Of a stretch of DNA of 38,988 nt, positions 5,842 to 38,988 are shown in pieces (within the stretch, counting starts at the first letter, position 1; every line of letters begins with the position of its first letter). The position numbers and the translations under genes are program-made. The stretch spans positions 1 to 38,988 of the forward strand of contig JAPYWX010000001.1 of the NCBI GenBank assembly GCA_028276145.1, in the 5' to 3' direction. The notes under the pieces are model-generated. The model saw nothing but the letters and a program-made list of their open reading frames with translations. It was not told where the DNA came from and did not search any database. The DNA is from Spirochaetota bacterium. GTDB taxonomy: Bacteria > Spirochaetota > Brevinematia > DTOW01.

Positions 5842-5906
5842 TCCTAATAGAGAAAAATTATTTTTGACAAAATCTTTTAAGAATGCAGAGATAACACGAA
5901 TCTCTG
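5842..5906 (+). repeat. Conserved 65-nt intergenic block, copy A; ends in hairpin CAGAGAT-aacacga-ATCTCTG (5886-5906)
   Basis: An ungapped alignment with 33641-33705 gives 47/65 identities by hand count. The core TTTTGAyAAAAyCTTTTAAGArTGCArAGAT matches at 26/30. A more diverged third copy lies around 25141-25187. Confidence 0.65.
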
Positions 5907-5923
5907 TTCTAAAAATAGGTAGA

Positions 5924-6003
5924 GTGCTCAACAGCACAGAGTGCTTAATAGCACGGGGTACTTAATAGCACGGGATGCTCAATAGCACTTAGTGCTATAG
6001 CAC
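5924..6003. repeat. Tandem array of 5 short palindromes (GTGCT-N2-4-AGCAC), about 17-nt period
   Basis: GTGCTCAACAGCAC 5924-5937; GTGCTTAATAGCAC 5941-5954; GTACTTAATAGCAC 5958-5971; ATGCTCAATAGCAC 5975-5988; GTGCTATAGCAC 5992-6003. Confidence 0.85.
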
Positions 6004-6050
6004 TTTCTCAATTGAGTGCTTGTAAAACCTTCCATATTCGGAGAGTGTAG

Positions 6051-6084
6051 AGAGGTGAAAACCTCTCAGAGGTGAAAACCTCTC
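6051..6084 (+). repeat. Two tandem 17-nt hairpins AGAGGT-GAAA-ACCTCT (GNRA loops)
   Basis: 6051-6066 and 6068-6083 are identical 6-bp stems with GAAA loops. ACCTCT-c-AGAGGT between them can form an alternative hairpin. The pair lies about 80 nt upstream of the GldG-like ATG. Confidence 0.7.
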
Positions 6085-6165
6085 TAAGAAAAATAAGAGT
6101 CAACCGAACCAAAACAATTTGAAACAGATACATTTTGAAATTTATTATTCACTTTAAGGTTGAGT

Positions 6166-23793: not shown

Positions 23794-25062
23794 CTATGTT
23801 TTCCTTTTTTTCCTTTCTGATGCTGGAAACAAAACATTGTTTAGTATCAACCTGTAGCCTGGCGAATTAGGTGTAAGGGAAACATCAGTCGGCGGGTCAC
23901 CAACATAGTGTGAATAATCCTCAGGATCATGCCCACCTAAAAAACAGAAAGCACCTTTGCCAAGCTCACCTCTTATATACTTAGCATAACCAGGCAAACT
24001 ATCACCATAGTCAGCAAGGATTGTAATACTTTCTTTCATTTTCCCTTTATTAAATGCTGTTGTTTGCCCCAGAAATTCCTTTACCTTAGTCGTATGATTT
24101 TGTACCAACATAGTACTCACAGGATCGTACTTTGCTGAAAATTCTTTCAAATAAAAATAATTCGGATGATTGTAAGAAATAGCGTAGTTCGGATAATCAA
24201 TGTCAGAGTATTCGTAAACATAAGGGTCAGTAATAATTGAGAAATCTTTAAAAGCAAAGGTTATATCAAAGTTTAGTTTTGAAGAATAATTAGGATCAAC
24301 AGGTGTACCATCAAAAATTTCAGGCACAATATCAGTATTAATTGCAGACAAAGCTATATCCAAGGTATCAGTTCCAGCACACATACCAAAAAGGAATCCT
24401 CCGTTCTCTACATATTCCCTTATCTTCATTGCTACCTTAGCTTTCATTTCTCTTACACTCCTGAAACCTTTGCTTTTCGCCATATTCTCAAGGCATGAAA
24501 CCATTTTTATATACCACGGAGAAGAGCCATAACTAGAAAAAAACTTACCAAACTGGCCGGTAAAATCTTCATGGTCAAAATGAAGCCAATCTATCTGATA
24601 CTCTTCTAGCTTCCCTTCAAGAATATCCTCATCAGTAAGCTCAACAAACGGAATATTCGCATACTTCAAAGCTATCTCAACAGCATCGTCATAAGGCAAA
24701 TCTATCTTGAGTCTGTATAATCCTATTCTTGGCGCTTTAGTCAACTTTATTATATTCATATTTTCAGTATTCGTAAGACTTGAGAGGTTTACCCAGTCCT
24801 CACTAGTTACCACCTGATAAACAATATTTTCCTTCTTCAACAATTCTTCTGTAAATCTATTCAAAGGTACAACAAAACTCCCACCCCTATAATTCAGAAA
24901 CCAGTACGCTTCAATACCATTTGCTAATGTATTGTAAACAATTCCATAAGGTTTAAGATGATCCACTTGCTTCGTATCCATAGGTATCAAAATAAAATCT
25001 CCGTACGAGTGACCAAAAACTAAGAACAAAACAAGAACTAAGCACAGCTTTTTGAATACCAT
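23794..25062 (-). CDS. Secreted hypothetical protein (about 420 aa)
   Basis: Signal peptide KKLCLVLVLFLVFGHSYG. The N-terminal ILIPMD..Q.DHLKPYG...WFLNYRGGSF resembles, from memory, a conserved family of unknown function that is often mislabelled asparagine synthetase B. The GMCAGTD segment might be a GATase1-like nucleophile elbow. ATG at 25062; the ORF-track TTG at 25077 is an alternative. No SD is visible. Confidence 0.5.
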   Translation of the reverse strand: MVFKKLCLVLVLFLVFGHSYGDFILIPMDTKQVDHLKPYGIVYNTLANGIEAYWFLNYRGGSFVVPLNRFTEELLKKENIVYQVVTSEDWVNLSSLTNTENMNIIKLTKAPRIGLYRLKIDLPYDDAVEIALKYANIPFVELTDEDILEGKLEEYQIDWLHFDHEDFTGQFGKFFSSYGSSPWYIKMVSCLENMAKSKGFRSVREMKAKVAMKIREYVENGGFLFGMCAGTDTLDIALSAINTDIVPEIFDGTPVDPNYSSKLNFDITFAFKDFSIITDPYVYEYSDIDYPNYAISYNHPNYFYLKEFSAKYDPVSTMLVQNHTTKVKEFLGQTTAFNKGKMKESITILADYGDSLPGYAKYIRGELGKGAFCFLGGHDPEDYSHYVGDPPTDVSLTPNSPGYRLILNNVLFPASERKKRKT

Positions 25063-25113
25063 TACTGAATTATACAACTAAAAAAGGTCCCTTTTCTAAC
25101 TTTTATACTCAAA

Positions 25114-25328
25114 GTGCTTCTTAAGCACAGGACTCTTCAGGAAAATTCGCTATTTATGACTTAATTAAGAATGTGCTGAAAGCACATTTCAAGTAATTCT
25201 ATCTCCCACACCATTTCTCAGAAAGGCTTTGCCCTACCTCATTCTCAACAACATCTAAACAAAAAAGTACTACTCAGCACTAACATTATTAAGCACAAGT
25301 GCTAATTGATACGAAGTGTTTCAAACAC
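25114..25328. repeat. Cluster of GTGCT..AGCAC-type palindromes and variants
   Basis: GTGCTTCTTAAGCAC 25114-25128; TTAAGAATGTGCTGAAAGCACAT 25165-25187; GTACTACTCAGCAC 25267-25280; AGCACAAGTGCT 25292-25303; GTGTTTCAAACAC 25316-25328. Confidence 0.8.
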
Positions 25329-25396
25329 AAAGTGCTAAATACATTACATTGAAAATGAATTATCTTACAATTACAATTCAAATGAAGGAGGAGGAC

Positions 25397-26185
25397 ATGT
25401 CAAATAAAAAAGTTATAACATATCTAATCTTAAACATAGTAGGGCTAATATCTATGATTACTATTAATCTCATGTCAACCTTAGGTATAATAGGAGGCAT
25501 AAAACCAGATTATATATCAAATAAGTACTTCACTATACTGACACCCCCAGGCTTTTCCTTCTCTATATGGGGGATTATATACCTACTTCTGATTCTTTTT
25601 ATTGGTTATCAAATTTATTCAATTATCAAAAAAGAAAATCATATAATTCTAAAGCCAGGTATATGGTTTTTCTTGAGTTCAGTTTTTAACATATCTTGGG
25701 TTTTTGCTTGGCACTATCAAATGATAGAAATTTCGTTCTTATCCATTCTCTTACTTCTCATATCGCTAATAATGGTTTACAAAGGTATAGGTATCGGGAA
25801 ACTAGAAGTTTCTCGGGTTGAAAAATTATTCATGTACGTACCATTCAGTATATACTTAGGATGGATAACAGTAGCTACACTCTTAAATCTTCTAGTTTTA
25901 CTGACAAAACTAAACTTCACGCTTTACTTAAACTACCAAGATTTCTGGGGACTAGGTGGTTCAATACTCTTACTATTCATAACTCTGTCAGTGTTGTTTT
26001 TCAGAAACGACATATTCTACGCCCTAACAATAATCTGGGCATCCTCGGGAGCTCTATACTCAAGACTATATGACACAAGAATAGTAGTGGACAGCTTTAC
26101 AACTTCATCTTTAATTGCAACTATAACTATAGTGACTTTGTACACATTGATAAAACTGATAAGAGGCAAAATATACTCTTTCTAA
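25397..26185 (+). CDS. Polytopic membrane protein, possibly TspO/MBR-like (tryptophan-rich sensory protein family)
   Basis: About 8 predicted TM segments. LTPPGFSFSIWGIIYLLL and the W-rich SWVFAWHY resemble long TspO-like proteins as I recall them. ATG at 25397 is preceded by GGAGGAGG. The ORF-track GTG at 25316 lies inside a palindrome and is rejected. Confidence 0.45.
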   Translation: MSNKKVITYLILNIVGLISMITINLMSTLGIIGGIKPDYISNKYFTILTPPGFSFSIWGIIYLLLILFIGYQIYSIIKKENHIILKPGIWFFLSSVFNISWVFAWHYQMIEISFLSILLLLISLIMVYKGIGIGKLEVSRVEKLFMYVPFSIYLGWITVATLLNLLVLLTKLNFTLYLNYQDFWGLGGSILLLFITLSVLFFRNDIFYALTIIWASSGALYSRLYDTRIVVDSFTTSSLIATITIVTLYTLIKLIRGKIYSF

Positions 26186-26186
26186 T

Positions 26187-26321
26187 GTGCTCTTCAGCAC
26201 CAATGTGCTTTTAGCATCCTTAGAAGACTTTGCAAACTTACTATTTATTGTAAAAGGCTCTGACTCCTACAAACTCTTCAGCAGTTGAATAAGTGCTTAA
26301 AGCACTTTGTGCTTAAGGCAC
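26187..26321. repeat. Two pairs of GTGCT..AGCAC palindromes in a convergent intergenic region
   Basis: GTGCTCTTCAGCAC 26187-26200; GTGCTTTTAGCAT 26205-26217; TTGAATAAGTGCTTAAAGCAC 26285-26305; GTGCTTAAGGCAC 26309-26321. Confidence 0.8.
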
Positions 26322-31059: not shown

Positions 31060-31329
31060 AATAACCCCTTTGAAAAAATATTAATTAGATTGTAAAGAAA
31101 AAACTCTTCAAATTCAAATTACACCAAGGTGCTCACAACCTGTGTTTAAAACACAAGTGTTTTAAAAACCTTACATCAAGTAATATTTTATAACATCTCC
31201 AATTGGAAATGCGATAGCATTTCTAACCAAGTAAGTTAGAAGCTCTATCGTTCTTTGGTTTCATATAAATAAGGTAATGGAATACCAAGCATCCCGATAT
31301 AAAAATAGATATTTTTTCAATATCAGACC

Positions 31330-31381
31330 GTGCTTCATAGCACATTCTTAATGTGCTTTAAGCACTTAAGTGCTTAAAGAC
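31330..31381. repeat. Three GTGCT..AGCAC-type palindromes
   Basis: GTGCTTCATAGCAC 31330-31343, identical to 33740-33753. The minus-strand flank TTAAGAATG occupies 31343-31351. GTGCTTTAAGCAC 31353-31365; degenerate GTGCTTAAAGAC 31370-31381. Confidence 0.8.
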
Positions 31382-31423: not shown

Positions 31424-31454
31424 ACAGGTTTAACCTGTGACATGTTTAACATGT
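31424..31454. promoter_or_regulatory. Two adjacent 15-bp perfect palindromes ACAGGTTTAACCTGT and ACATGTTTAACATGT
   Basis: 31424-31438 and 31440-31454, separated by 1 nt. They lie 45 nt upstream of the 31500 ORF start. This is operator-like geometry with two dimer sites. Confidence 0.6.
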
Positions 31455-31499
31455 GAATTTTTCAGTGCAATCCAAAAGATTTGAATAGAATCAACATAA

Positions 31500-32210
31500 T
31501 TGGTTATACTTAATTTTGTGATAGACTTAAACAATATAAAAATACCCGTCTCGGCTATATTTGGACTCTTGATAGGTCTAGTAATAGGTATAATCGTTGG
31601 GATTATAAACAAAGGGTACTTTCTAGAAATAATTATGAGGTCAATACTAAGCGGGATAATAATGGGAGGAGTTCTATTTCTAGTAGAACAATTACTTCGG
31701 AACTACACTCCTGAAATCTTTGAAGAAAGTACAAACAACACTGGGATTGACATAAAAGAAGAGGATGAAAACATATCTCTAGAAGAAATATACGGTAGCG
31801 TCAAAGAAGAATCTCCAGAACCTAAGAGTCAAGAGTACACTTTCGGAGATAATTTCCAGGAATCAATATCTGCTTTTGAAAGTGCTGATAGGACTCCCGA
31901 AGAAACGACATTCAGCGAATTAAATGAGTTTTCCCTTAAATCAAGTTTTCCGGAATTTGAAAGAGAATCTTCAGTAGAAGAGTCTTTAGGAAGTTTTGAA
32001 GAACAAAAAAATACAAACCAAACTCCAGAATTTTCACCAGTTGAGTTTAGGAAAATTGAGATAACACCAAGTGAACTAGGAGTAACAAAAGAAAGCAAGG
32101 GTGGTATGACAAACGAATTCATAATACCTCCAAAAGGAAGCAAACCGATACCAAAAGATTACAAAAAGTTAGCTCAAATAATTAGAACAAAATTACATGA
32201 AGAGAAGTAA
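31500..32210 (+). CDS. Hypothetical membrane protein with acidic, E/S/T-rich C-terminal region
   Basis: Two or three N-terminal TM helices (GLLIGLVIGIIVGII; ILSGIIMGGVLFLV), then a low-complexity acidic tail. The start is uncertain: TTG 31500, GTG 31518 or ATG 31635, with no clear SD. Confidence 0.5.
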   Translation: MVILNFVIDLNNIKIPVSAIFGLLIGLVIGIIVGIINKGYFLEIIMRSILSGIIMGGVLFLVEQLLRNYTPEIFEESTNNTGIDIKEEDENISLEEIYGSVKEESPEPKSQEYTFGDNFQESISAFESADRTPEETTFSELNEFSLKSSFPEFERESSVEESLGSFEEQKNTNQTPEFSPVEFRKIEITPSELGVTKESKGGMTNEFIIPPKGSKPIPKDYKKLAQIIRTKLHEEK

Positions 32211-33299
32211 AATTAACACAACAGCAATACCAACAGCTATTATCGCTATATTAACTAGCCAAAAAATTAATTTATTACCAAATCCTTCATCCTTACCAAA
32301 AGATACACCTTCGCTAACTTTCCCTTCTTCTATTTTCTGGTCCGTAAATTCAACGGGAATCTGCTTTTGTTGAGGTTGAGTAGTGACAAATAGCTGTTCT
32401 TTTACTACACCCTCTGACTTCGTCTTCTCTGCTTTAATTTTTATATCCTCTTTTGTTATAAATTTACCTATAAAACCAGGTCCCAACTCCACATACACAA
32501 GATACCTACCAAAATCTAGCTTTTTCACGAAAAGCACTGTGGATCTCTCTTCCTTTCCTACAGAAAAAAGTTCAGCTGTTGACTGCTCAGGATTAACAGT
32601 AACGTAAACAATATCACCTTGCTTCATTTCACCAACAGTCATACCCTCAATAGGTGCAAGAACTGGTTGTACCTCAAATTCATAAATACCTTTAGGTTCT
32701 TCCTCTGTAGCTTCAAATTTACCCAATTCTATAAACTTCAAACTTTTTGGGATTTCTATCCCCAAATTCTTGAGAAAATTATAGAATTCAAACAAATCTA
32801 TCCTTTCATACGAAAATCTTACTACTGCTCTGTCATCGCCAAACATGAATGGTATATAAGTATACAAGAATCTCCTAATGTCTATTAAGGTTTTACCTTC
32901 CTCTGTAACTTTTAGCAAAGACTTCCTAAAATTATCATCAGAGTAGAATAACTTCTGAACTCTAGAGGATATATCTTCGTCTATCCTAAAGCTAGAATAA
33001 CCTTCTGAAATTTTCTTCACTAACTCTTTCCAAGGTAGCTCTATGTTCTGCTTTGTTATTTCCGGGTCAGTTGAAAAATAAGCTCTAACAAAGTCTATAC
33101 TACCACTCCTTTTATTCAAGAACAAAATGACCACTCCAGAATATATGGAAAAAGAAATTTTCATTTTAAAAACGATTATATCTTTCTGAAGCGAATTAAG
33201 AAACATCAATAATCTATCAGGATTCTCTCTGAACTTCTCAAGTAGAAACTCTGCAATATTTCTTGGTATACCCCTACTCTCAAGTTCACTAATATCCAT
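32193..33299 (-). CDS. Hypothetical tail-anchored membrane protein (368 aa)
   Basis: Soluble N-terminal body of about 340 aa with no recognised motif, plus a single C-terminal TM helix (LIFWLVNIAIIAVGIAVVLILLLF). Its 3' end overlaps the convergent 31500 gene by 18 nt. Confidence 0.55.
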   Translation of the reverse strand: MDISELESRGIPRNIAEFLLEKFRENPDRLLMFLNSLQKDIIVFKMKISFSIYSGVVILFLNKRSGSIDFVRAYFSTDPEITKQNIELPWKELVKKISEGYSSFRIDEDISSRVQKLFYSDDNFRKSLLKVTEEGKTLIDIRRFLYTYIPFMFGDDRAVVRFSYERIDLFEFYNFLKNLGIEIPKSLKFIELGKFEATEEEPKGIYEFEVQPVLAPIEGMTVGEMKQGDIVYVTVNPEQSTAELFSVGKEERSTVLFVKKLDFGRYLVYVELGPGFIGKFITKEDIKIKAEKTKSEGVVKEQLFVTTQPQQKQIPVEFTDQKIEEGKVSEGVSFGKDEGFGNKLIFWLVNIAIIAVGIAVVLILLLFM

Positions 33300-33640
33300 A
33301 AAATCATTTTCTAAGATTAAAAAAATTTTTTCAATATTTTTTTAATCAAAACACATTAATTGTTATTCACTCTTTTTCTCATGTGAGAGTAATTAAATCA
33401 TCCTTGCTACTAGTGAAAAAGTATCAAGAGCTTACTACCATTCCCCAAGTGCTTAAACCTATTTTTGTACTAAAGAACACCTTCTATTCAATTACCAAAG
33501 ATAAACAAAGTTTCTCTTCAAAAAGTAAGTTAGGTAGAAGAATTTAGAGCAAAAAATATTCTTTGATTATAGCACTACTTATATATCTTATAAGGTGAGT
33601 TTTTACATAAACTAGCAAAAGCACACCGTACTTCAAGTAC

Positions 33641-33705
33641 TCCTATAGGAAAGAACTATTTTTTGATAAAACCTTTTAAGAGTGCAAAGATGCTTCGTAT
33701 CTCTA
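33641..33705 (+). repeat. Conserved 65-nt intergenic block, copy B; ends in an imperfect hairpin AAAGAT-gcttcgt-ATCTCT
   Basis: See copy A (5842-5906). It has the same length, the same orientation relative to the downstream plus-strand gene, and the same distance of about 17 nt to the first GTGCT palindrome. Confidence 0.65.
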
Positions 33706-33722
33706 AGATAAAGATGTGTGAT

Positions 33723-33753
33723 GTGCTTAATAGCACTTTGTGCTTCATAGCAC
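33723..33753. repeat. Two tandem palindromes GTGCTTAATAGCAC and GTGCTTCATAGCAC (17-nt period)
   Basis: 33723-33736 and 33740-33753. The minus-strand flank TTAAGAAAG lies at 33753-33761. Confidence 0.85.
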
Positions 33754-33944
33754 TTTCTTAATTTTTTTTATATCACAGAGTGCAGAGAGAAGAGGTCTCT
33801 CTTCAGACGATTAGATTGTGTGGAGCACTTAACAGCACTTTTTTAAGATACTTGAGGTAATTCGTAGGGTCCTAACGGAAATTCCTTATCAAACATTGGA
33901 AATTATAAAGAGGCTTTGGCTCTTTACATCAATTAGGGTGTGGG

Positions 33945-34006
33945 GTGCTTAGTAGCACTAGTGCTTAATAGCACATCGTGCTTAAAGTACCTGTGCTACG
34001 TATCAC
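33945..34006. repeat. Tandem array of 4 palindromes (15-17 nt period)
   Basis: GTGCTTAGTAGCAC 33945-33958; GTGCTTAATAGCAC 33961-33974; GTGCTTAAAGTAC 33978-33990; GTGCTACGTATCAC 33993-34006. Hairpin AAAGAG-gctttgg-CTCTTT (33907-33925) precedes the array by 19 nt. Confidence 0.8.
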
Positions 34007-34112
34007 ATCCTTGTTTTAAATTAATAAACAGCAGTAACCTATGAGTTTTTTAAATCCTTACTAGTTGAAAGGAGAAGGTTTTGTAAATTATTCTTATTTT
34101 AAGGTATTGGAT

Positions 34113-34478
34113 ATGGATAGGACGGAAAAACCGAGTAGTGGTTTTAGATATGCTAGAGTACCAGTAAACATAGAAGCAGAGTACGAATTTAAAGGTATAA
34201 AAGGGAAATGCAACATTGTAGATATTTCCGAAGGAGGCATGAAAATACAAGTAAAGCAAGTATTTGTACCTGGAGATATGATAAGAGTTAAATTTCCAAT
34301 AATTCATGAAGGTAAGGTTATAAACATAGATGCGTGGTGTATCGTCAGAAATTCTAGCGGAAACGAGATAGGTGTAGAATTTGACGAACTACCAAATGAA
34401 CAACGTAAATTACTTGTAACATACGTTGAGAATCTACTACTAAGACATGGTAAAGACAGATACGAACCTATTGAATAA
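34113..34478 (+). CDS. Stand-alone PilZ domain protein (about 121 aa)
   Basis: DISEGG matches the D-x-S-x-x-G motif. The arginine motif upstream reads FRYARV, which is RxxR rather than the canonical RxxxR. The beta-barrel-like remainder ends in GVEFDEL. Start chosen at ATG 34113; the ORF-track TTG at 34065 is also possible. Confidence 0.7.
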   Translation: MDRTEKPSSGFRYARVPVNIEAEYEFKGIKGKCNIVDISEGGMKIQVKQVFVPGDMIRVKFPIIHEGKVINIDAWCIVRNSSGNEIGVEFDELPNEQRKLLVTYVENLLLRHGKDRYEPIE

Positions 34479-34489
34479 TTGGGGTTTCT

Positions 34490-36349
34490 ATGAATTGGGA
34501 AAAATCTGTTTTTTCAGAAGTTAACAAACACTTTGTATCAAATCCCTATCCTACTTTCAACGAATACATAAAAATTAGCCTCAGATTACTTAAAAATAGC
34601 CCAGTAAAGAATGCTTACATAAGAGCAATAATAGACGGTGGCTCTAGGTACATAAAGATGCAACCTTCCAAATACACGAACAACTTCGTATACTACACAG
34701 GCTGGCTAAAAATTTCCCAAAAATTCATTAACTATCATTTTGTATTAGACACAGGTAATAAAGTTTTCTTCTACACAAGAAAAGGTATATTCTCATATTT
34801 CCCTACAGAAGATAATGATTTTGTAATAGTAGCAGATTTTGAGAATCCTGACTGGGTACCAAAATCCGTTTTTTACCAAATATTTCCTGATAGGTTTGCT
34901 CAAGGCAAACCAGAATTAGCGGTGAAAACTGGTGAATACGAATACAAAGGATTCAAAACCCTAAAGGTAGAATTCAATTCAGAGCCGTTACCGTACTCAA
35001 AAGGAAGGTGCTTAGACTTCCATGGTGGTGACTTGTATGGAATAATTCAAAAAATACCTTATCTCAAGGAACTAGGCATCAACGCCGTATACCTAAACCC
35101 AATATTCAAAGCTCTCACACACCATAGATACGACTGTATAGATTACTTTGAGGTAGACCCACACTTAGGCGGAAACGAAGGGCTAAAAAATTTAGTAGAA
35201 GAGTTACATAAAAATGGAATAAAAATAATCCTTGATGTTTCAATAAACCACACAGGCACAGAACACAAATGGTTCAAAAAGGCTCTGGAAGACCCAAATT
35301 CTGAGGAAAGAGGATTTTACTACTTTGATGACAAAGGTAATTACCGAGGTTGGGCAGGATTAGATGACTTACCACAGCTAAACTATAACTCAAAGACTTT
35401 AAGGAAGATAATATTTGAAGATGAAAACTCTCTCGTAAGATTTTGGATAAAGAATTATGATATAGACGGCTGGAGATTTGATGTCGCAAACGATACTGGA
35501 AGGAACGGCAGAGACCAATTCGGAAACGAAATATTCCAAAAAATTAGAGAAGCCGTAAAGTCTATCAAAAAAGATGCTTACCTAATAGGAGAACATTGGG
35601 AAGACAACATAAGCTACTTACTTGGAGACCAATTAGACGGATGTATGAATTACTTCGCCTCATCAAGACCCCTTAGATGCTTCGCTGGAGAAGTAGACTG
35701 GTTCTTAAGAAATATTGTTGAACTCAATAGGAATCTAGATGCTTATTCAGGAACGGACCTAGAAATGCAAATAATACAACACTTCACCAGAATACCGAAT
35801 CAAGTAGCATTTCTACAGTTTAACTTACTAGATTCTCACGACATGCCAAGATTCCATAATTCACAAAAATTTTACTTTGATGTTTATAAGGGAATGATGA
35901 TAATACTATTTCTTTTACCCGGAACAACTTCAGTATACTATGGTGATGAAATTGGGCTAAGAGGAAGAACAGACAGTGTAGAAGGATGTAGATACCCTAT
36001 GGAATGGGATGAAACAAAATGGAATAAAGATTTCTTAACTCTTTACAAAACATTAATTAAACTAAAAACTTCTGAAGAAGCACTACAAACAGGGGCTTAT
36101 AAACCTCTATTTGCAGACGATGACACATTCGCTTTTGTAAGATTCACGGAAGAAAAGGCATTTTTAGGCGTTATTTCAAAGGCTAACGAGGAAAAAAGTA
36201 TAAAAATCCCAACTTATGTAGCAGGTGTTTTTGAAAGCAAAGGCAAAGACATATTCACTGGTGAAGAGTTTAAAGCAAATAGCGGCTATTTAGATACTAA
36301 AGTTTCAAAAAAGAAACAACTGCTAATTGAATTCAATTGCGATAACTAA
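34490..36349 (+). CDS. GH13 alpha-amylase family enzyme (neopullulanase/cyclomaltodextrinase-like), cytoplasmic
   Basis: All four GH13 conserved regions are present: DVSINHTG, GWRFDVAND, GEHWED and LLDSHDMPR. It has an N-terminal accessory domain and no signal peptide. It starts 11 nt after the PilZ gene ends. Confidence 0.85.
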   Translation: MNWEKSVFSEVNKHFVSNPYPTFNEYIKISLRLLKNSPVKNAYIRAIIDGGSRYIKMQPSKYTNNFVYYTGWLKISQKFINYHFVLDTGNKVFFYTRKGIFSYFPTEDNDFVIVADFENPDWVPKSVFYQIFPDRFAQGKPELAVKTGEYEYKGFKTLKVEFNSEPLPYSKGRCLDFHGGDLYGIIQKIPYLKELGINAVYLNPIFKALTHHRYDCIDYFEVDPHLGGNEGLKNLVEELHKNGIKIILDVSINHTGTEHKWFKKALEDPNSEERGFYYFDDKGNYRGWAGLDDLPQLNYNSKTLRKIIFEDENSLVRFWIKNYDIDGWRFDVANDTGRNGRDQFGNEIFQKIREAVKSIKKDAYLIGEHWEDNISYLLGDQLDGCMNYFASSRPLRCFAGEVDWFLRNIVELNRNLDAYSGTDLEMQIIQHFTRIPNQVAFLQFNLLDSHDMPRFHNSQKFYFDVYKGMMIILFLLPGTTSVYYGDEIGLRGRTDSVEGCRYPMEWDETKWNKDFLTLYKTLIKLKTSEEALQTGAYKPLFADDDTFAFVRFTEEKAFLGVISKANEEKSIKIPTYVAGVFESKGKDIFTGEEFKANSGYLDTKVSKKKQLLIEFNCDN

Positions 36350-36353
36350 ATAT

Positions 36354-37226
36354 TCATAGTTGGTAAACTATTTGGTTAGGCCCAACTAATTTTGATTTAT
36401 AGCAAGCTTTTTCAACATTAGATATAAGAGTCTTTGCATCTTCACCATCATCAGGATAGGTTTGAATTCCCATACTCAGCGTTAACCCAAAAACAACTCC
36501 CGATATGCTCAAAACTTCTTCATTTATCCTGTGGAGTAGCCTATTAGCAAAAAGTAAAGCACCTTTCTTATCTGTATGTGGAAGTATCATACCGAATTTA
36601 CTCATGCTAAACCTAAACGCTTCATCTTCTGCTCTCTTCGATGAATTTATTATTGAAGCCACACTTATAACAGTTTGAAGAGCAACTGAGGTATGACCAG
36701 AAATTGTTGCACTCTCAAGTCCGTTGATTTGTAATATTAACAAAGAAAATTTATGACCATGTCTTTTTGACCTATTGAGCTCTCTTGTCACAAATTTCTC
36801 AAATAAATGGCCCTTATACATTCCCGTTAGAATATCTTGAATTATTTTGTCCTTTATCTTTTCTGTCAGTATCAAATCCATCACCGAAGGATTCTTCAAA
36901 TATCTCTTAATATTCAAAAAATACTCTGATATAGTTGCCGTTATATGTATAGGTCTTCCTAAAGAAGATATCAAATAATTATGATACTTCGCTATCTCAT
37001 CCCATAACTGCTCTGCTAACTCCTCTTCTATCTTTATACCTGTAAGAAGTAGAAAGAATTTCTCAAAAAACCTTTTATCCTTCAACTTATTCCTAAGAGC
37101 ATTGATGTCTTTAATAGGATTCTTTGAAGAGAAAACAACATCATATATCTTCAACATTGTCTGGTCTTCAATCTCCGTAACTAAAGGATAAATCAGCACA
37201 GGATTCTTGCTTACAGGTAACTTCAT
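36354..37226 (-). CDS. Degenerate GGDEF-domain protein (A-site lost, RxxD I-site retained) with an unknown N-terminal domain
   Basis: The GGDEF fold is recognisable (ELNRSKRHGHKFSLLIL....GH....L....A......R.ED.AFRF-SMSKF-GMILPHTD...A...A..L; MGIQTYP; EKACYKSKLVGPNQI). SMSKF replaces GG(D/E)EF, and LQING replaces the DxD metal site. RAED lies exactly 5 residues upstream of the degenerate motif. Confidence 0.7.
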   Translation of the reverse strand: MKLPVSKNPVLIYPLVTEIEDQTMLKIYDVVFSSKNPIKDINALRNKLKDKRFFEKFFLLLTGIKIEEELAEQLWDEIAKYHNYLISSLGRPIHITATISEYFLNIKRYLKNPSVMDLILTEKIKDKIIQDILTGMYKGHLFEKFVTRELNRSKRHGHKFSLLILQINGLESATISGHTSVALQTVISVASIINSSKRAEDEAFRFSMSKFGMILPHTDKKGALLFANRLLHRINEEVLSISGVVFGLTLSMGIQTYPDDGEDAKTLISNVEKACYKSKLVGPNQIVYQL

Positions 37227-37293
37227 ACCTTCATCTCCAATAAAAAATTATCAATTTACTCATAACCTTCTTTCAAGAGCTCTATCATCTCTC

Positions 37294-38046
37294 TTATTCA
37301 GATATCATCTTGTACTTTTTTAGCTTTAGAAGTTCCTCTTTCATGGAAAGAAGTTCGATTATACCTTCCATCTTCTCTAATTCCCTATCCCTTCTTTTGG
37401 ATATTTCCTCTAAACTCTTCTTTATACTGTTTATTATTTCTCTCAACTCTGATTCACTAATTTGGCTATTTTGGATACTTCCATTTTTACTCTCATACTT
37501 AAGCTCTCTATTAGCAATAGTTGGCTTAACTGAGGAATATAGTCCAGGGTACTTATCTTTATACTTCTCCAAAAAGCTTACAGCCTCATCAATCCTACCA
37601 ATAGCTTGCAAAGAATTAACAAGGATGATAAAAACATTCTCTTCAAGGCCCCAAGAGTCACCAAACTTATCCAAATACTCCTTTGAGTAATTTATACTTT
37701 TACTAAAGTCATTCATCATATATGATGAAACTATAACATCGTACAAGCTCTTTTGATAATAAAAGTCATAACTTTTATCTTTAAGTACCTTCTCACCAAA
37801 ATAAAAAGCATTAGAGAAATCTTTTTTCAAAAAGTAGCACTCAGAAAGATAGTAATTTACTTTTCTGATTATTCCTTCATTTGTAGAAGTTATGGACCCA
37901 AGAATCCCTATAGCCTCATCGTAATTTTTCAGAGCTATGAGTGAAACAGCCTTATTCAGAGTATCGTACTCATTTTTATTTTGAGGAAATGACAACCATG
38001 AAATAGAAGATAAAATTATTATATATACCCAATATCTTATCCTCAT
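37294..38046 (-). CDS. Secreted TPR-like repeat protein with C-terminal coiled coil
   Basis: N-terminal signal-like IIILSSISWLSF. Helical repeats with Y/A/L spacing (YDEAIGIL, YYLSECYF, AFYFGEKVL, RIDEAVSFLEKY). E/K-rich C-terminus. Confidence 0.5.
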   Translation of the reverse strand: MRIRYWVYIIILSSISWLSFPQNKNEYDTLNKAVSLIALKNYDEAIGILGSITSTNEGIIRKVNYYLSECYFLKKDFSNAFYFGEKVLKDKSYDFYYQKSLYDVIVSSYMMNDFSKSINYSKEYLDKFGDSWGLEENVFIILVNSLQAIGRIDEAVSFLEKYKDKYPGLYSSVKPTIANRELKYESKNGSIQNSQISESELREIINSIKKSLEEISKRRDRELEKMEGIIELLSMKEELLKLKKYKMISE

Positions 38047-38049
38047 TAT

Positions 38050-38667
38050 TCATAAATTATCGTTCAACTTTGTTCTAAACCTTATAGCTCTTGACAATGT
38101 ATACATATCTGAGTATTCTATGTTTCCACCTAACGGTATTCCTCTGGCGATAGTAGTTATACTTAAGTCTTCTATATCCCTTAACTTTGAAACTATAAAA
38201 GCCATTGTCGTTTCCCCTTCTGAATCAGGGTCAAGAGCAAAGAAAACCTCCTTTATCCCCAATTTCTTAATTCTTTCAATGAGCTTAGAGATATTTATAT
38301 CCGAAGGGCCGACTCCTTCGAGGGGTGATATGACTCCCCACAAAACATGATATAGTCCGTTATATTCTCCCGTCTTTTCTATAGTTATAACATCAGTTGG
38401 TTTCTCAACTACACACAGAATTTCCCTATTTCTATCAGGTGACAAACATATATGACAAGGATCCGTATCCGATATCATTCCACATTCAGAACATATTTTG
38501 ATATTTTCCTTAATATCAGAAAAAACATCAATCAACTTTTGTACCATGTTGTCTTTAGAGGTTATTATGTAAAATGATATTCTCTCAGCAGTCTTAGACC
38601 CTATACCAGGTATAGTACTTAGTATATTTATAAGGCTCTCTATCTGTTTTGGTAAAATTTCCTTCAT
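38050..38667 (-). CDS. recR: Recombination protein RecR
   Basis: HhH motif IPGIGSKTAERI, zinc finger CSECGMISDTDPCHIC and Toprim motifs (CVVEKPTDV, DPDSEGETT). Start at ATG 38667. Confidence 0.92.
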   Translation of the reverse strand: MKEILPKQIESLINILSTIPGIGSKTAERISFYIITSKDNMVQKLIDVFSDIKENIKICSECGMISDTDPCHICLSPDRNREILCVVEKPTDVITIEKTGEYNGLYHVLWGVISPLEGVGPSDINISKLIERIKKLGIKEVFFALDPDSEGETTMAFIVSKLRDIEDLSITTIARGIPLGGNIEYSDMYTLSRAIRFRTKLNDNL

Positions 38668-38672
38668 ACACA

Positions 38673-38933
38673 CTACCAAAGATCTGCATCTATACCCAAG
38701 AAGTTTTTAGAATAAAAATAAATTATACCTCTTTTCATTTCTTTCAAATCAACATCACCATGAACTTGCTTAACTTTTGAAAGTACGTAAGTTATAAAGG
38801 GGTGCAAGTTACCATCTTTACCCAGTTCTCCTAACTTTGACTTAGATATCATATCATCATAGTACATTTTTGCAGTTTGGTCATTCTTTATTAATTTCTC
38901 GATAGTATCTGAAATTTCCCTATACGATGTCAT
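38673..38933 (-). CDS. Hypothetical small protein (86 aa)
   Basis: ORF immediately upstream of recR (5-nt gap), with GAGGGAG upstream of its ATG. No similarity to YbaB/EbfC that I can see. Confidence 0.45.
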   Translation of the reverse strand: MTSYREISDTIEKLIKNDQTAKMYYDDMISKSKLGELGKDGNLHPFITYVLSKVKQVHGDVDLKEMKRGIIYFYSKNFLGIDADLW

Positions 38934-38988
38934 AACTCCCTCTCTTCAATCAGTGGCATTTCAGGTGAATAGATAGTTATTCTATTCC

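Follow-up and report, generated by a model that had tools for sequence, protein, structure and literature searches.

The longest non-coding stretch in a 38,988-nucleotide segment of DNA from a Spirochaetota bacterium (Brevinematia, DTOW01; assembly GCA_028276145.1, contig JAPYWX010000001.1), the whole of which we call the window, is a gap of 813 bases at positions 33300-34112. It is flanked by a DUF4899-like gene on the minus strand (32193-33299) and by a PilZ-domain gene whose ATG lies at 34113; a gene of the GH13 alpha-amylase family begins 12 nt after the PilZ-domain gene. An earlier note on this DNA had described three repeated modules in the gap and had proposed that they make up either a large structured RNA or, upstream of PilZ, a complex regulatory region. 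Our analysis indicates that the gap probably holds three copies of a modular extragenic repeat, high in copy number and specific to the lineage, which together make a hypervariable cluster rather than an RNA gene of this locus or a regulator of PilZ. Almost all modules are intergenic, and they turn over rapidly by whole units and whole modules. Furthermore, sequence comparison with a syntenic relative shows that they are dispensable at the PilZ locus.

Read 5' to 3' on one strand, a module shows, in this order, AGAGTG, a head hairpin whose 5' arm is rich in purines, a linker that is A-rich and contains (T)AGGGTG together with a G-rich tract, 1 to 11 tandem GTGCT-loop-AGCAC mini-hairpins, and the tail TTTYTTAATT. 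A TTTCTTAATT tail closes the modules, and the same grammar, with its fixed order and orientation, recurs in other gaps of the window and at more than 200 sites of related genomes, which sustains the earlier proposal of a reused unit as opposed to random low-complexity DNA. With up to one mismatch allowed, the window contains 13 copies of the motif GTGCT-N4-AGCAC, whereas 100 dinucleotide-preserving shuffles give 0.46 +/- 0.69 (maximum 3). Its exact copies are all intergenic, lying in three gaps (5924-5988, 31330-31365 and 33723-34006).

Contigs of relatives were gathered via homologues of the flanking gene, and metagenomes were scanned with one and a half units. At least 120 metagenome stretches carry the array, nearly all of them, among the matches listed, with about 35% G+C. 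The array counts come from approximately 1.07 Mb, which contains 446 arrays of 1-11 units; 256 of these are unique and oriented, and 251 of the 256 are intergenic. Units are 13-14 nt long, with loops such as TAAT, TCAT, TAA, TTA and similar, and are separated by T-rich linkers of 2-3 nt, and a conserved T-rich tail, TTTYTTAWTT, comes after the last of them; unit spacing is 15-17 nt in 620 of 707 cases, and there is about one module per 5-7 kb. The recurrent head in related loci reads AGAGTG[T/A/C]AGAGAG-loop-CTCTCT.., followed by ..AAWTAGGGTGGG.. Relatives that are about 68% identical in the flanking protein (about 76% in gene DNA) have no PilZ synteny, yet they carry the module in other gaps, as exemplified by AGAGTGCAGAGATGCtatGCATCTCTGC-gataaaaatGGGTGGGTGGGCGGG-GTGCTTCATAGCAC upstream of a VIT1 gene.

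As the earlier note had suggested, the modules were also sought with a covariance model. This model, R1, covers the head, the linker and the G tract, and was built from 36 heads of other loci with the window and near-identical strains left out. A search of 838 kb of related loci with it yielded 223 matches (E <= 0.01). Its top five matches in the window, at 33777, 6042, 33900, 33679 and 5880, are all on the plus strand with E values from 2.5e-5 to 5e-3, the next being a relic at 33496.

The scan of Rfam proposed in the earlier note found no match at the gathering threshold in the window, only chance-level matches (E > 1) for the gap in a search at E <= 10, and matches well below gathering in four module-rich loci. 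A scan of viral contigs gave no matches, and a double-unit scan of contigs of representative genomes, a set without the source species, gave only chance or unrelated matches in GC-rich organisms; a Hydromicrobium repeat, CACTCCAGTGCTGATGAGCAC, from that scan was rejected as unrelated. In the literature searched we found no paper with these sequences, nor one describing repeats in Brevinematia.

The three modules of the PilZ gap lie on the plus strand, and each has the layout that had been described for it, a purine-arm hairpin followed by a spacer and an array. Their sequences differ, and the filler between them is unrelated. To their left, 33300-33356 holds the promoter region of the divergent gene 32193-33299 on the minus strand, where a promoter scan placed TTGAAA-17-GAAAAT at 33334-33306; this is the only left-hand part of the gap that is kept in relatives, being identical or nearly so in L015, L057 and L020. 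It is followed by hypervariable filler (33357-33640) that barely aligns with the relative of about 85% DNA identity; the half-sites previously noted there are present but weak, and a decayed head-like relic lies at 33496-33529 (R1 16.9 bits, E 0.03). Module 1 begins with a 5' extension, CCTAtAGGA..TTTTTTGATAAAACCTTTTA (33641-33678), also seen in other loci, and the comparison of the 65-nt blocks 33641-33705 and 5842-5906 was reproduced exactly, with 47 of 65 positions identical and 26/30 in the best 30-nt core. Its head (33679-33725; R1 20.4 bits, E 0.004) consists of AGAGTG, the hairpin GCAAAGAT-gcttcgt-ATCTCT with one A.C mismatch, and the G/T-rich spacer aagataaagatgtgtgat. The hairpin is separated by 17 nt from the first unit of a terminator-like array (33723-33770), in which the units GTGCTTAATAGCAC and GTGCTTCATAGCAC, at 33723 and 33740 with a 17-nt period, precede the tail TTTCTTAATTTTTTTT.

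Module 2 has the best R1 match in the window (29.3 bits, E 2.5e-5) at its head, 33777-33823, which is made of AGAGTGCAGAGAG, the hairpin AGAGAGA-agagg-TCTCTCT and a spacer ending in ..ATTAGATTGTGTGG. The hairpin reported previously is at 33789-33804, and a better stem of 7 bp spans 33784-33802; 17-18 nt further on comes GAGCACTTAACAGCAC. The layout of this module was thus as described, while the coordinates of GAGCACTTAACAGCAC had to be corrected from 33822-33837 to 33823-33838, and it is not a palindrome: it is a degenerate unit with AGCAC repeated directly, which followed by TTTTTT forms an array remnant (33823-33844) that is identical in L057. In module 3 the head (33900-33946; R1 25.5 bits, E 2.2e-4) has the hairpin TAAAGAG-gctttgg-CTCTTTA and the spacer CATCAATTAGGGTGTGGGG; a 19-nt gap separates the hairpin, at 33907-33925, from an array of four units (33945-34006) that begin at 33945, 33961, 33978 and 33993 with 15-17-nt spacing, the last two, GTGCTTAAAGTAC and GTGCTACGTATCAC, being degenerate. 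Downstream of all modules, the promoter scan placed a PilZ promoter-like site, TTGAAA-18-TATTCT, at 34065-34094 on the plus strand.

Close relatives show how quickly this gap changes. In L057, whose flanking genes are about 97% identical to those of the window, array 1 has three units in place of two (+17 nt), a complete module of 125 nt is present between units 3 and 4 of array 3 with its junctions inside units, and some 300 nt (33357-33664) are replaced by about 61 unrelated nt. In the neighbouring gap L020 differs from the window by +33, +18 and +30 nt, each made of whole hairpin units, and at the island at 5842 L028 differs by a 17-nt hairpin duplication and by substitutions concentrated in the array. 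Contigs assembled independently from the same population, or from a near-identical one, end in this region: L014 starts at 33730, inside array 1, and L020 ends about 70 nt beyond 33357; these ends look like assembly breaks caused by the repeats.

The syntenic relative L015 (GCA_964475465.1), with 82% protein identity, about 85% DNA identity and conserved gene order, has a PilZ gap of 305 nt without modules, and modules are missing at all three orthologous gaps. Its 21-kb locus holds no exact units and no R1 matches; one relic unit is present in the next gap, and otherwise there are only ordinary terminator hairpins. One close lineage has therefore lost the repeat family or never expanded it. 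Both promoter-like sites, that of PilZ (with the same hexamers and spacing) and that of the divergent gene, are conserved in L015. Since these conserved sites lie outside the modules, the modules would be upstream of both divergent promoters and are therefore unlikely to be part of the PilZ mRNA. No sigma-70-type promoter was predicted within the modules, either here or in a four-module cluster of a relative; a conserved TTGACA-17-AGAGAT was considered as a promoter and rejected, as by inspection it has no usable -10 and the sigma-54 and sigma-28 consensus sequences do not fit. Together, the retention of the promoters in a relative without modules, and the position of the modules outside both promoter-like sites, argue against the complex PilZ regulatory region previously proposed. 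The proposal of one large structured RNA fares no better, as the modules are not conserved at the locus in L057 or L015, contain no predicted promoter and have no match in Rfam. Most likely, the modules of the PilZ gap are passengers that affect pilZ and the GH13 gene little or not at all.

The modules have a marked polarity. Mixed loop orientation was found in only 1 of 308 arrays, arrays sharing one intergenic region point in the same direction in 133 pairs versus 3, and the G-rich tract precedes the array in 36 cases and never follows it. On the forward strand, 146 of 256 arrays (57%) have a T-rich tail after their last unit; the figure for the reverse strand is 19 of 256 (7%). In the same 146/256 forward versus 19/256 reverse cases, the last unit with its tail resembles, by a simple definition, an intrinsic terminator, in which a G+C-rich hairpin is directly followed by a T run, although the stems have just 5 bp and 3 G-C pairs. 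Where arrays lie between same-strand genes, their orientation agrees with that of the genes in 73 cases versus 21, and in 41 versus 14 once orthologous sites are collapsed (p = 3.6e-4). In divergent gaps, neither the gene-strand bias of the whole locus nor GC skew predicts how arrays are oriented (30 versus 31), which suggests that polarity tracks local transcription, not replication, and rules out replication direction as its cause. The head hairpin in turn keeps its pairing through compensatory changes: both sides change at 6 of 11 pairs, with 41 compensated cells against 14.3 +/- 2.4 in shuffles among hairpins pre-selected for at most one mismatch. Imperfect purine-arm head hairpins show 22 G.T versus 6 A.C mismatches on the forward strand.

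These observations suggest how the repeats may arise and what they may do. Arrays would grow and shrink by slipped-strand or recombinational events in which the unit is a hairpin with a short flanking direct repeat, and whole modules would be gained or lost by unequal recombination between arrays. The co-orientation of 41 versus 14, the forward T-rich tails and the G.T excess in head hairpins hint at a generic role at transcript ends: a module read forward from an upstream gene would present a strong hairpin, then a string of weak hairpins and a U-rich end, and might act as a generic terminator or 3'-end protector, and this would account for the preference for the forward orientation where genes lie on the same strand. 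Several points weigh against this reading. Fold z-scores, controlled for composition, are -4.2 on both strands, so that folding energy is uninformative for strand assignment, and the mini-hairpin units have no significant wobble asymmetry (56 G.T versus 42 A.C). Divergent gaps make up about 37% of sites (46/123), where read-through from an upstream gene is impossible, and 5-bp stems would be weak terminators. Support from covariation is overstated by counting on hairpins pre-selected for at most one mismatch, and the counts are not fully independent, since many loci are strains of few species. The role of the modules as terminators or stabilisers is, finally, one that we infer from sequence.

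In about 1 Mb of related DNA the periods of tandem repeats peak sharply at 15-17 nt (361 of 610 arrays), and at least eight unrelated 5-bp stems form arrays with this period, including AGCAC, GATGC, ACCTG, AACAC, GAGAC, CAGGC and ATCAC. This peak across unrelated stems could be a mutational signature or the sign of a dedicated reader. Taken with the polar module, the shared period might conceivably reflect a dedicated system, which we regard as improbable: either an RNA- or single-stranded-DNA-binding protein that would read strings of 5-bp hairpins at fixed spacing, in which case the repeats would be multicopy structured RNA elements of a new class, with a part in termination or mRNA stability in this lineage, or a hairpin-specific enzyme that would generate and spread the arrays. 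Other-stem arrays of the same 15-17-nt period include GTGTTTAAAACAC, CAGGTTTAACCTG/CATGTTTAACATG, GCATCttcGATGC and ATCACtttGTGAT (window 31137-31170 and 31425-31460; L016 19330-19410 and 19840-19900), and their copy number varies among near-identical strains.

Other explanations account for part of these data. The repeats could be a neutral or selfish by-product of replication slippage, which would amplify any short hairpin with flanking direct repeats of 2-3 nt and leave the modules functionless at the RNA and DNA level. Copy-number differences among strains of about 97% identity, always in whole units, agree with this idea, as do the many unrelated stems at the same period, the concentration of substitutions in the array and the lack of modules in the close relative L015. 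Slippage alone, however, leaves unexplained the order of head, G tract, array and tail across species about 25% apart in flanking DNA, the orientation bias of 41 versus 14 and the compensatory changes in head hairpins, and we consider it somewhat unlikely as a complete account. Alternatively, the modules could be small-RNA genes in tandem or a single large structured RNA, with a promoter for every module and an array that serves as a multivalent platform, for instance a protein sponge of the CsrB/RsmZ kind. The strict polarity with T-rich terminator-like ends, the compensatory changes and G.T excess of the head hairpins, the 12 terminator-like sites in a module cluster versus 0.6 expected, and a conserved TTGACA/TTGATA 17 nt before AGAGAT that precedes GCAGAGAT-type heads would all fit such genes, but no sigma-70-type promoter is predicted in or before the modules, and AGAGAT lacks the invariant A2 of a -10 hexamer. 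Moreover, there are hundreds of copies per genome, gained and lost rapidly and absent from L015; the structural z-scores are equal on both strands, Rfam gives no match, and no single large fold is conserved, since the three modules differ and are separated by unrelated filler. We therefore hold this explanation to be quite improbable.

A further explanation is that GTGCT-N4-AGCAC, or the interleaved AGCAC-N3-GTGCT, is an operator, that is, a double-stranded site for a dimeric global regulator or nucleoid protein that would coat intergenic DNA and modulate promoters, including that of PilZ. In favour are the units themselves, 14-bp palindromes with 5-bp arms clustered in promoter-containing gaps (46 of 123 sites are divergent), the symmetric fold z-scores and the lack of wobble bias in the units; the arms are also similar to the CIRCE half-sites TTAGCAC/GTGCTAA. 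An asymmetric, consistently oriented loop centre, and linkers and a tail that are T-rich on one strand only, would nevertheless not be expected from a symmetric dimer site, and orientation follows the flanking same-strand genes. The period of 15-17 nt is out of helical phase, the downstream genes have no common function, at least eight other stem sequences form arrays of the same period, and L015 has lost the sites and kept the promoters. An operator role seems as improbable as small-RNA genes, and a polar, rapidly changing extragenic repeat remains the reading that we prefer.

The closest analogues of this module family are the REP/BIME mosaics and the pneumococcal BOX elements. Like the REP/BIME of Enterobacteria and Pseudomonas, the modules are built from short imperfect palindromes, number hundreds per genome and are almost only extragenic (here 251/256 arrays); they form mosaic clusters with conserved linker motifs, strain-variable copy number and transcription-related polarity, and the roles proposed for REP/BIME are likewise terminator or 3'-end mRNA protection. 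Many REPs begin with GTAG, and the head hairpin here often does so as well. Unlike the 20-40-nt REPs of BIMEs and REPINs, which are alternately inverted, the units are 13-14 nt long with 5-bp arms and stand in direct tandem at 15-17 nt, and the module includes a separate head hairpin and a G-rich tract. REP/BIME have a cognate RAYT, an IS200-like Y1 transposase, whereas here no RAYT/IS200-like protein was found by a crude regular-expression search for HUH and Y motifs among 923 open reading frames in about 1 Mb of fragmentary loci, a negative that counts neither for nor against a transposase. BOX elements of Streptococcus pneumoniae (boxA-boxB(n)-boxC) are present in more than 100 copies, are polar and are predicted to form highly structured RNA. 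Like the present family they are modular, lie between genes and have tandem internal subunits that vary in number, but there is no sequence similarity, boxB measures 45 nt against 15-17 nt here, and terminal boxA and boxC resemble inverted ends, none of which were seen in our modules.

Repeats of the MITE type (Correia/NEMIS, RUP, ERIC) are also high-copy, intergenic and strain-variable, and can carry terminators or promoters. However, MITEs have terminal inverted repeats and target-site duplications, and the module that distinguishes L057 from the window has neither; its junctions lie inside array units, as expected from unequal recombination. Sponge RNAs such as CsrB/RsmZ and RNAs of the ToxI type resemble the modules in their short structured repeats in tandem on one strand and in their terminator-like tail, but each kind comes from one gene or a small number of genes dedicated to it, under their own promoters, in contrast to hundreds of copies with no predicted promoter; CsrB/RsmZ loops carry GGA and ToxI adjoins a toxin gene, whereas the loops here are A/U-only (UAAU, UCAU) and the neighbouring genes are unrelated. 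The CIRCE operator, TTAGCACTC-N9-GAGTGCTAA, bound by HrcA, has the AGCAC/GTGCT core in its arms, but these are 9 bp long with a 9-nt spacer, as opposed to 5-bp arms, 3-4-nt spacers, tandem arrays of up to 11 units and no association with chaperone genes. CRISPR arrays have repeats of 24-48 nt and unique spacers of similar length, unlike the 15-17-nt period, 2-3-nt linkers and lack of spacers here. The intrastrand triplex motifs described in PMC4666352, which are linked to genome instability, are likewise highly repeated, structure-prone and intergenic, and their loci are more rearranged between close strains; compared with that G/C-rich triplex former, our modules combine hairpins with a G-run tract, with no triplex-compatible arrangement evident. 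An intrastrand triplex between the G tract and the purine-arm hairpin was also rejected upon inspection, for both third-strand polarity and sequence mismatch.

Two parts of the module differ among species and head types. In the relatives with about 68% identity in the flanking protein, the head-to-array spacer is a canonical run of G-quadruplex type, GGGTGGGTGGGCGGGG, found on the forward strand in every case (L016 8406-8421, 19129-19143 and 19653-19669; L027 686-700 and 1180-1194), and RNA or DNA containing GGGTGGGTGGGCGGG, as found in the modules of relatives, is a G-quadruplex candidate. In the species of the window this spacer has decayed to GGGTGTGGGG or GATGTGTGATG, and no G3-run motif is left in the window. 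Heads of the GCAGAGAT type have a conserved 5' extension of about 70 nt, TCAATTCTTGAA..GCTAAATTACTTACATTTTGT..TGCCTAGGATACTTTTTTGACAAAACC, in at least 10 loci (L016 8459-8528 on the minus strand, L052, L072, L075, L122, L136 and others), of which 33641-33678 and 5842-5879 of the window are the 3' part; this extension could be a repeat in its own right, or could contain a non-canonical promoter.

Further copies are found elsewhere in the window. On the plus strand, a second module at 5842-6013 is composed of a 5' extension, a head at 5880-5926 (R1 20.0 bits, E 0.005), a five-unit array at 5924-6002 and the tail TTTCTCAATTG; its hairpin at 5886-5906 and its array from 5924 have the layout of the PilZ-gap modules, as had been observed before. 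It is followed at 6042-6099 by another plus-strand head, AGAGTGTAGAGAGGTgaaaACCTCTC (R1 25.9 bits, E 1.7e-4), with an internal 17-nt hairpin duplication and no array after it. The duplicated hairpin unit, AGAGGTGAAAACCTCTC (6050-6084), is in tandem (17 nt) in the window and single in strain L028, and internal duplications of head hairpins occur elsewhere, AGAGAGACACCGTCTC being present two to four times in L037, L054 and L117. The intergenic region next to the PilZ gap has an array of GTGCTT..AGCAC units on the plus strand (31330-31379), with one extra unit in L020 and a single relic in L015. A weaker module on the minus strand at 25165-25290, upstream of gene 23794-25077, can be recognized from its hairpin GGTAGGGCaaaGCCTTTCT, tract GGTGTGGGAG, unit GTGCTTTCAGCAC and tail ATTCTTAATTAAG, with an R1 match that is not significant alone (11.8 bits, E 0.56). 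On the plus strand at 26187-26321, in a convergent gap, the units GTGCTCTTCAGCAC, GTGCTTTTAGCAT, GTGCTTAAAGCAC and GTGCTTAAGGCAC were identified by sequence right after the stop codon of gene 25316-26185, starting one base past it.

Concerning the coding content, the absence from the gap of any contained open reading frame of at least 60 amino acids, like its standing as the longest non-coding stretch, had been reported before and was confirmed. The only reading frames there are one of 54 amino acids starting with GTG (33383-33547) and one on the minus strand that overlaps pilZ; a small protein from the former was ruled out, since the segment is absent from strains of about 97% identity. The divergent gene 32193-33299 and the convergent gene 31500-32210 on the plus strand overlap at their 3' ends by 18 nt (32193-32210), and the overlap is likewise called in relatives. 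Downstream of the PilZ and GH13 genes, the opposite strand encodes two GGDEF genes, one at 36354-37226 and another that runs off the end of the window. This PilZ/GH13/GGDEF set (34113-38988) looks like a possible glycan module linked to cyclic di-GMP, and it is also conserved in L015.

For the annotation of these genomes, our results mean that long 'empty' gaps are better taken for repeat clusters than for candidate riboregulators, and that the cluster in the PilZ gap would have no bearing on regulation by PilZ and cyclic di-GMP. The arrays could serve as strain-typing markers in metagenomes. The module family is an undescribed and unusually compact extragenic palindromic mosaic, in which hairpins of 13-14 nt in direct tandem are combined with a head hairpin and, in relatives, with a G-quadruplex-type tract. 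It offers a natural system for hairpin-repeat expansion, and for the question of terminator or mRNA-end protector, in an AT-rich lineage.

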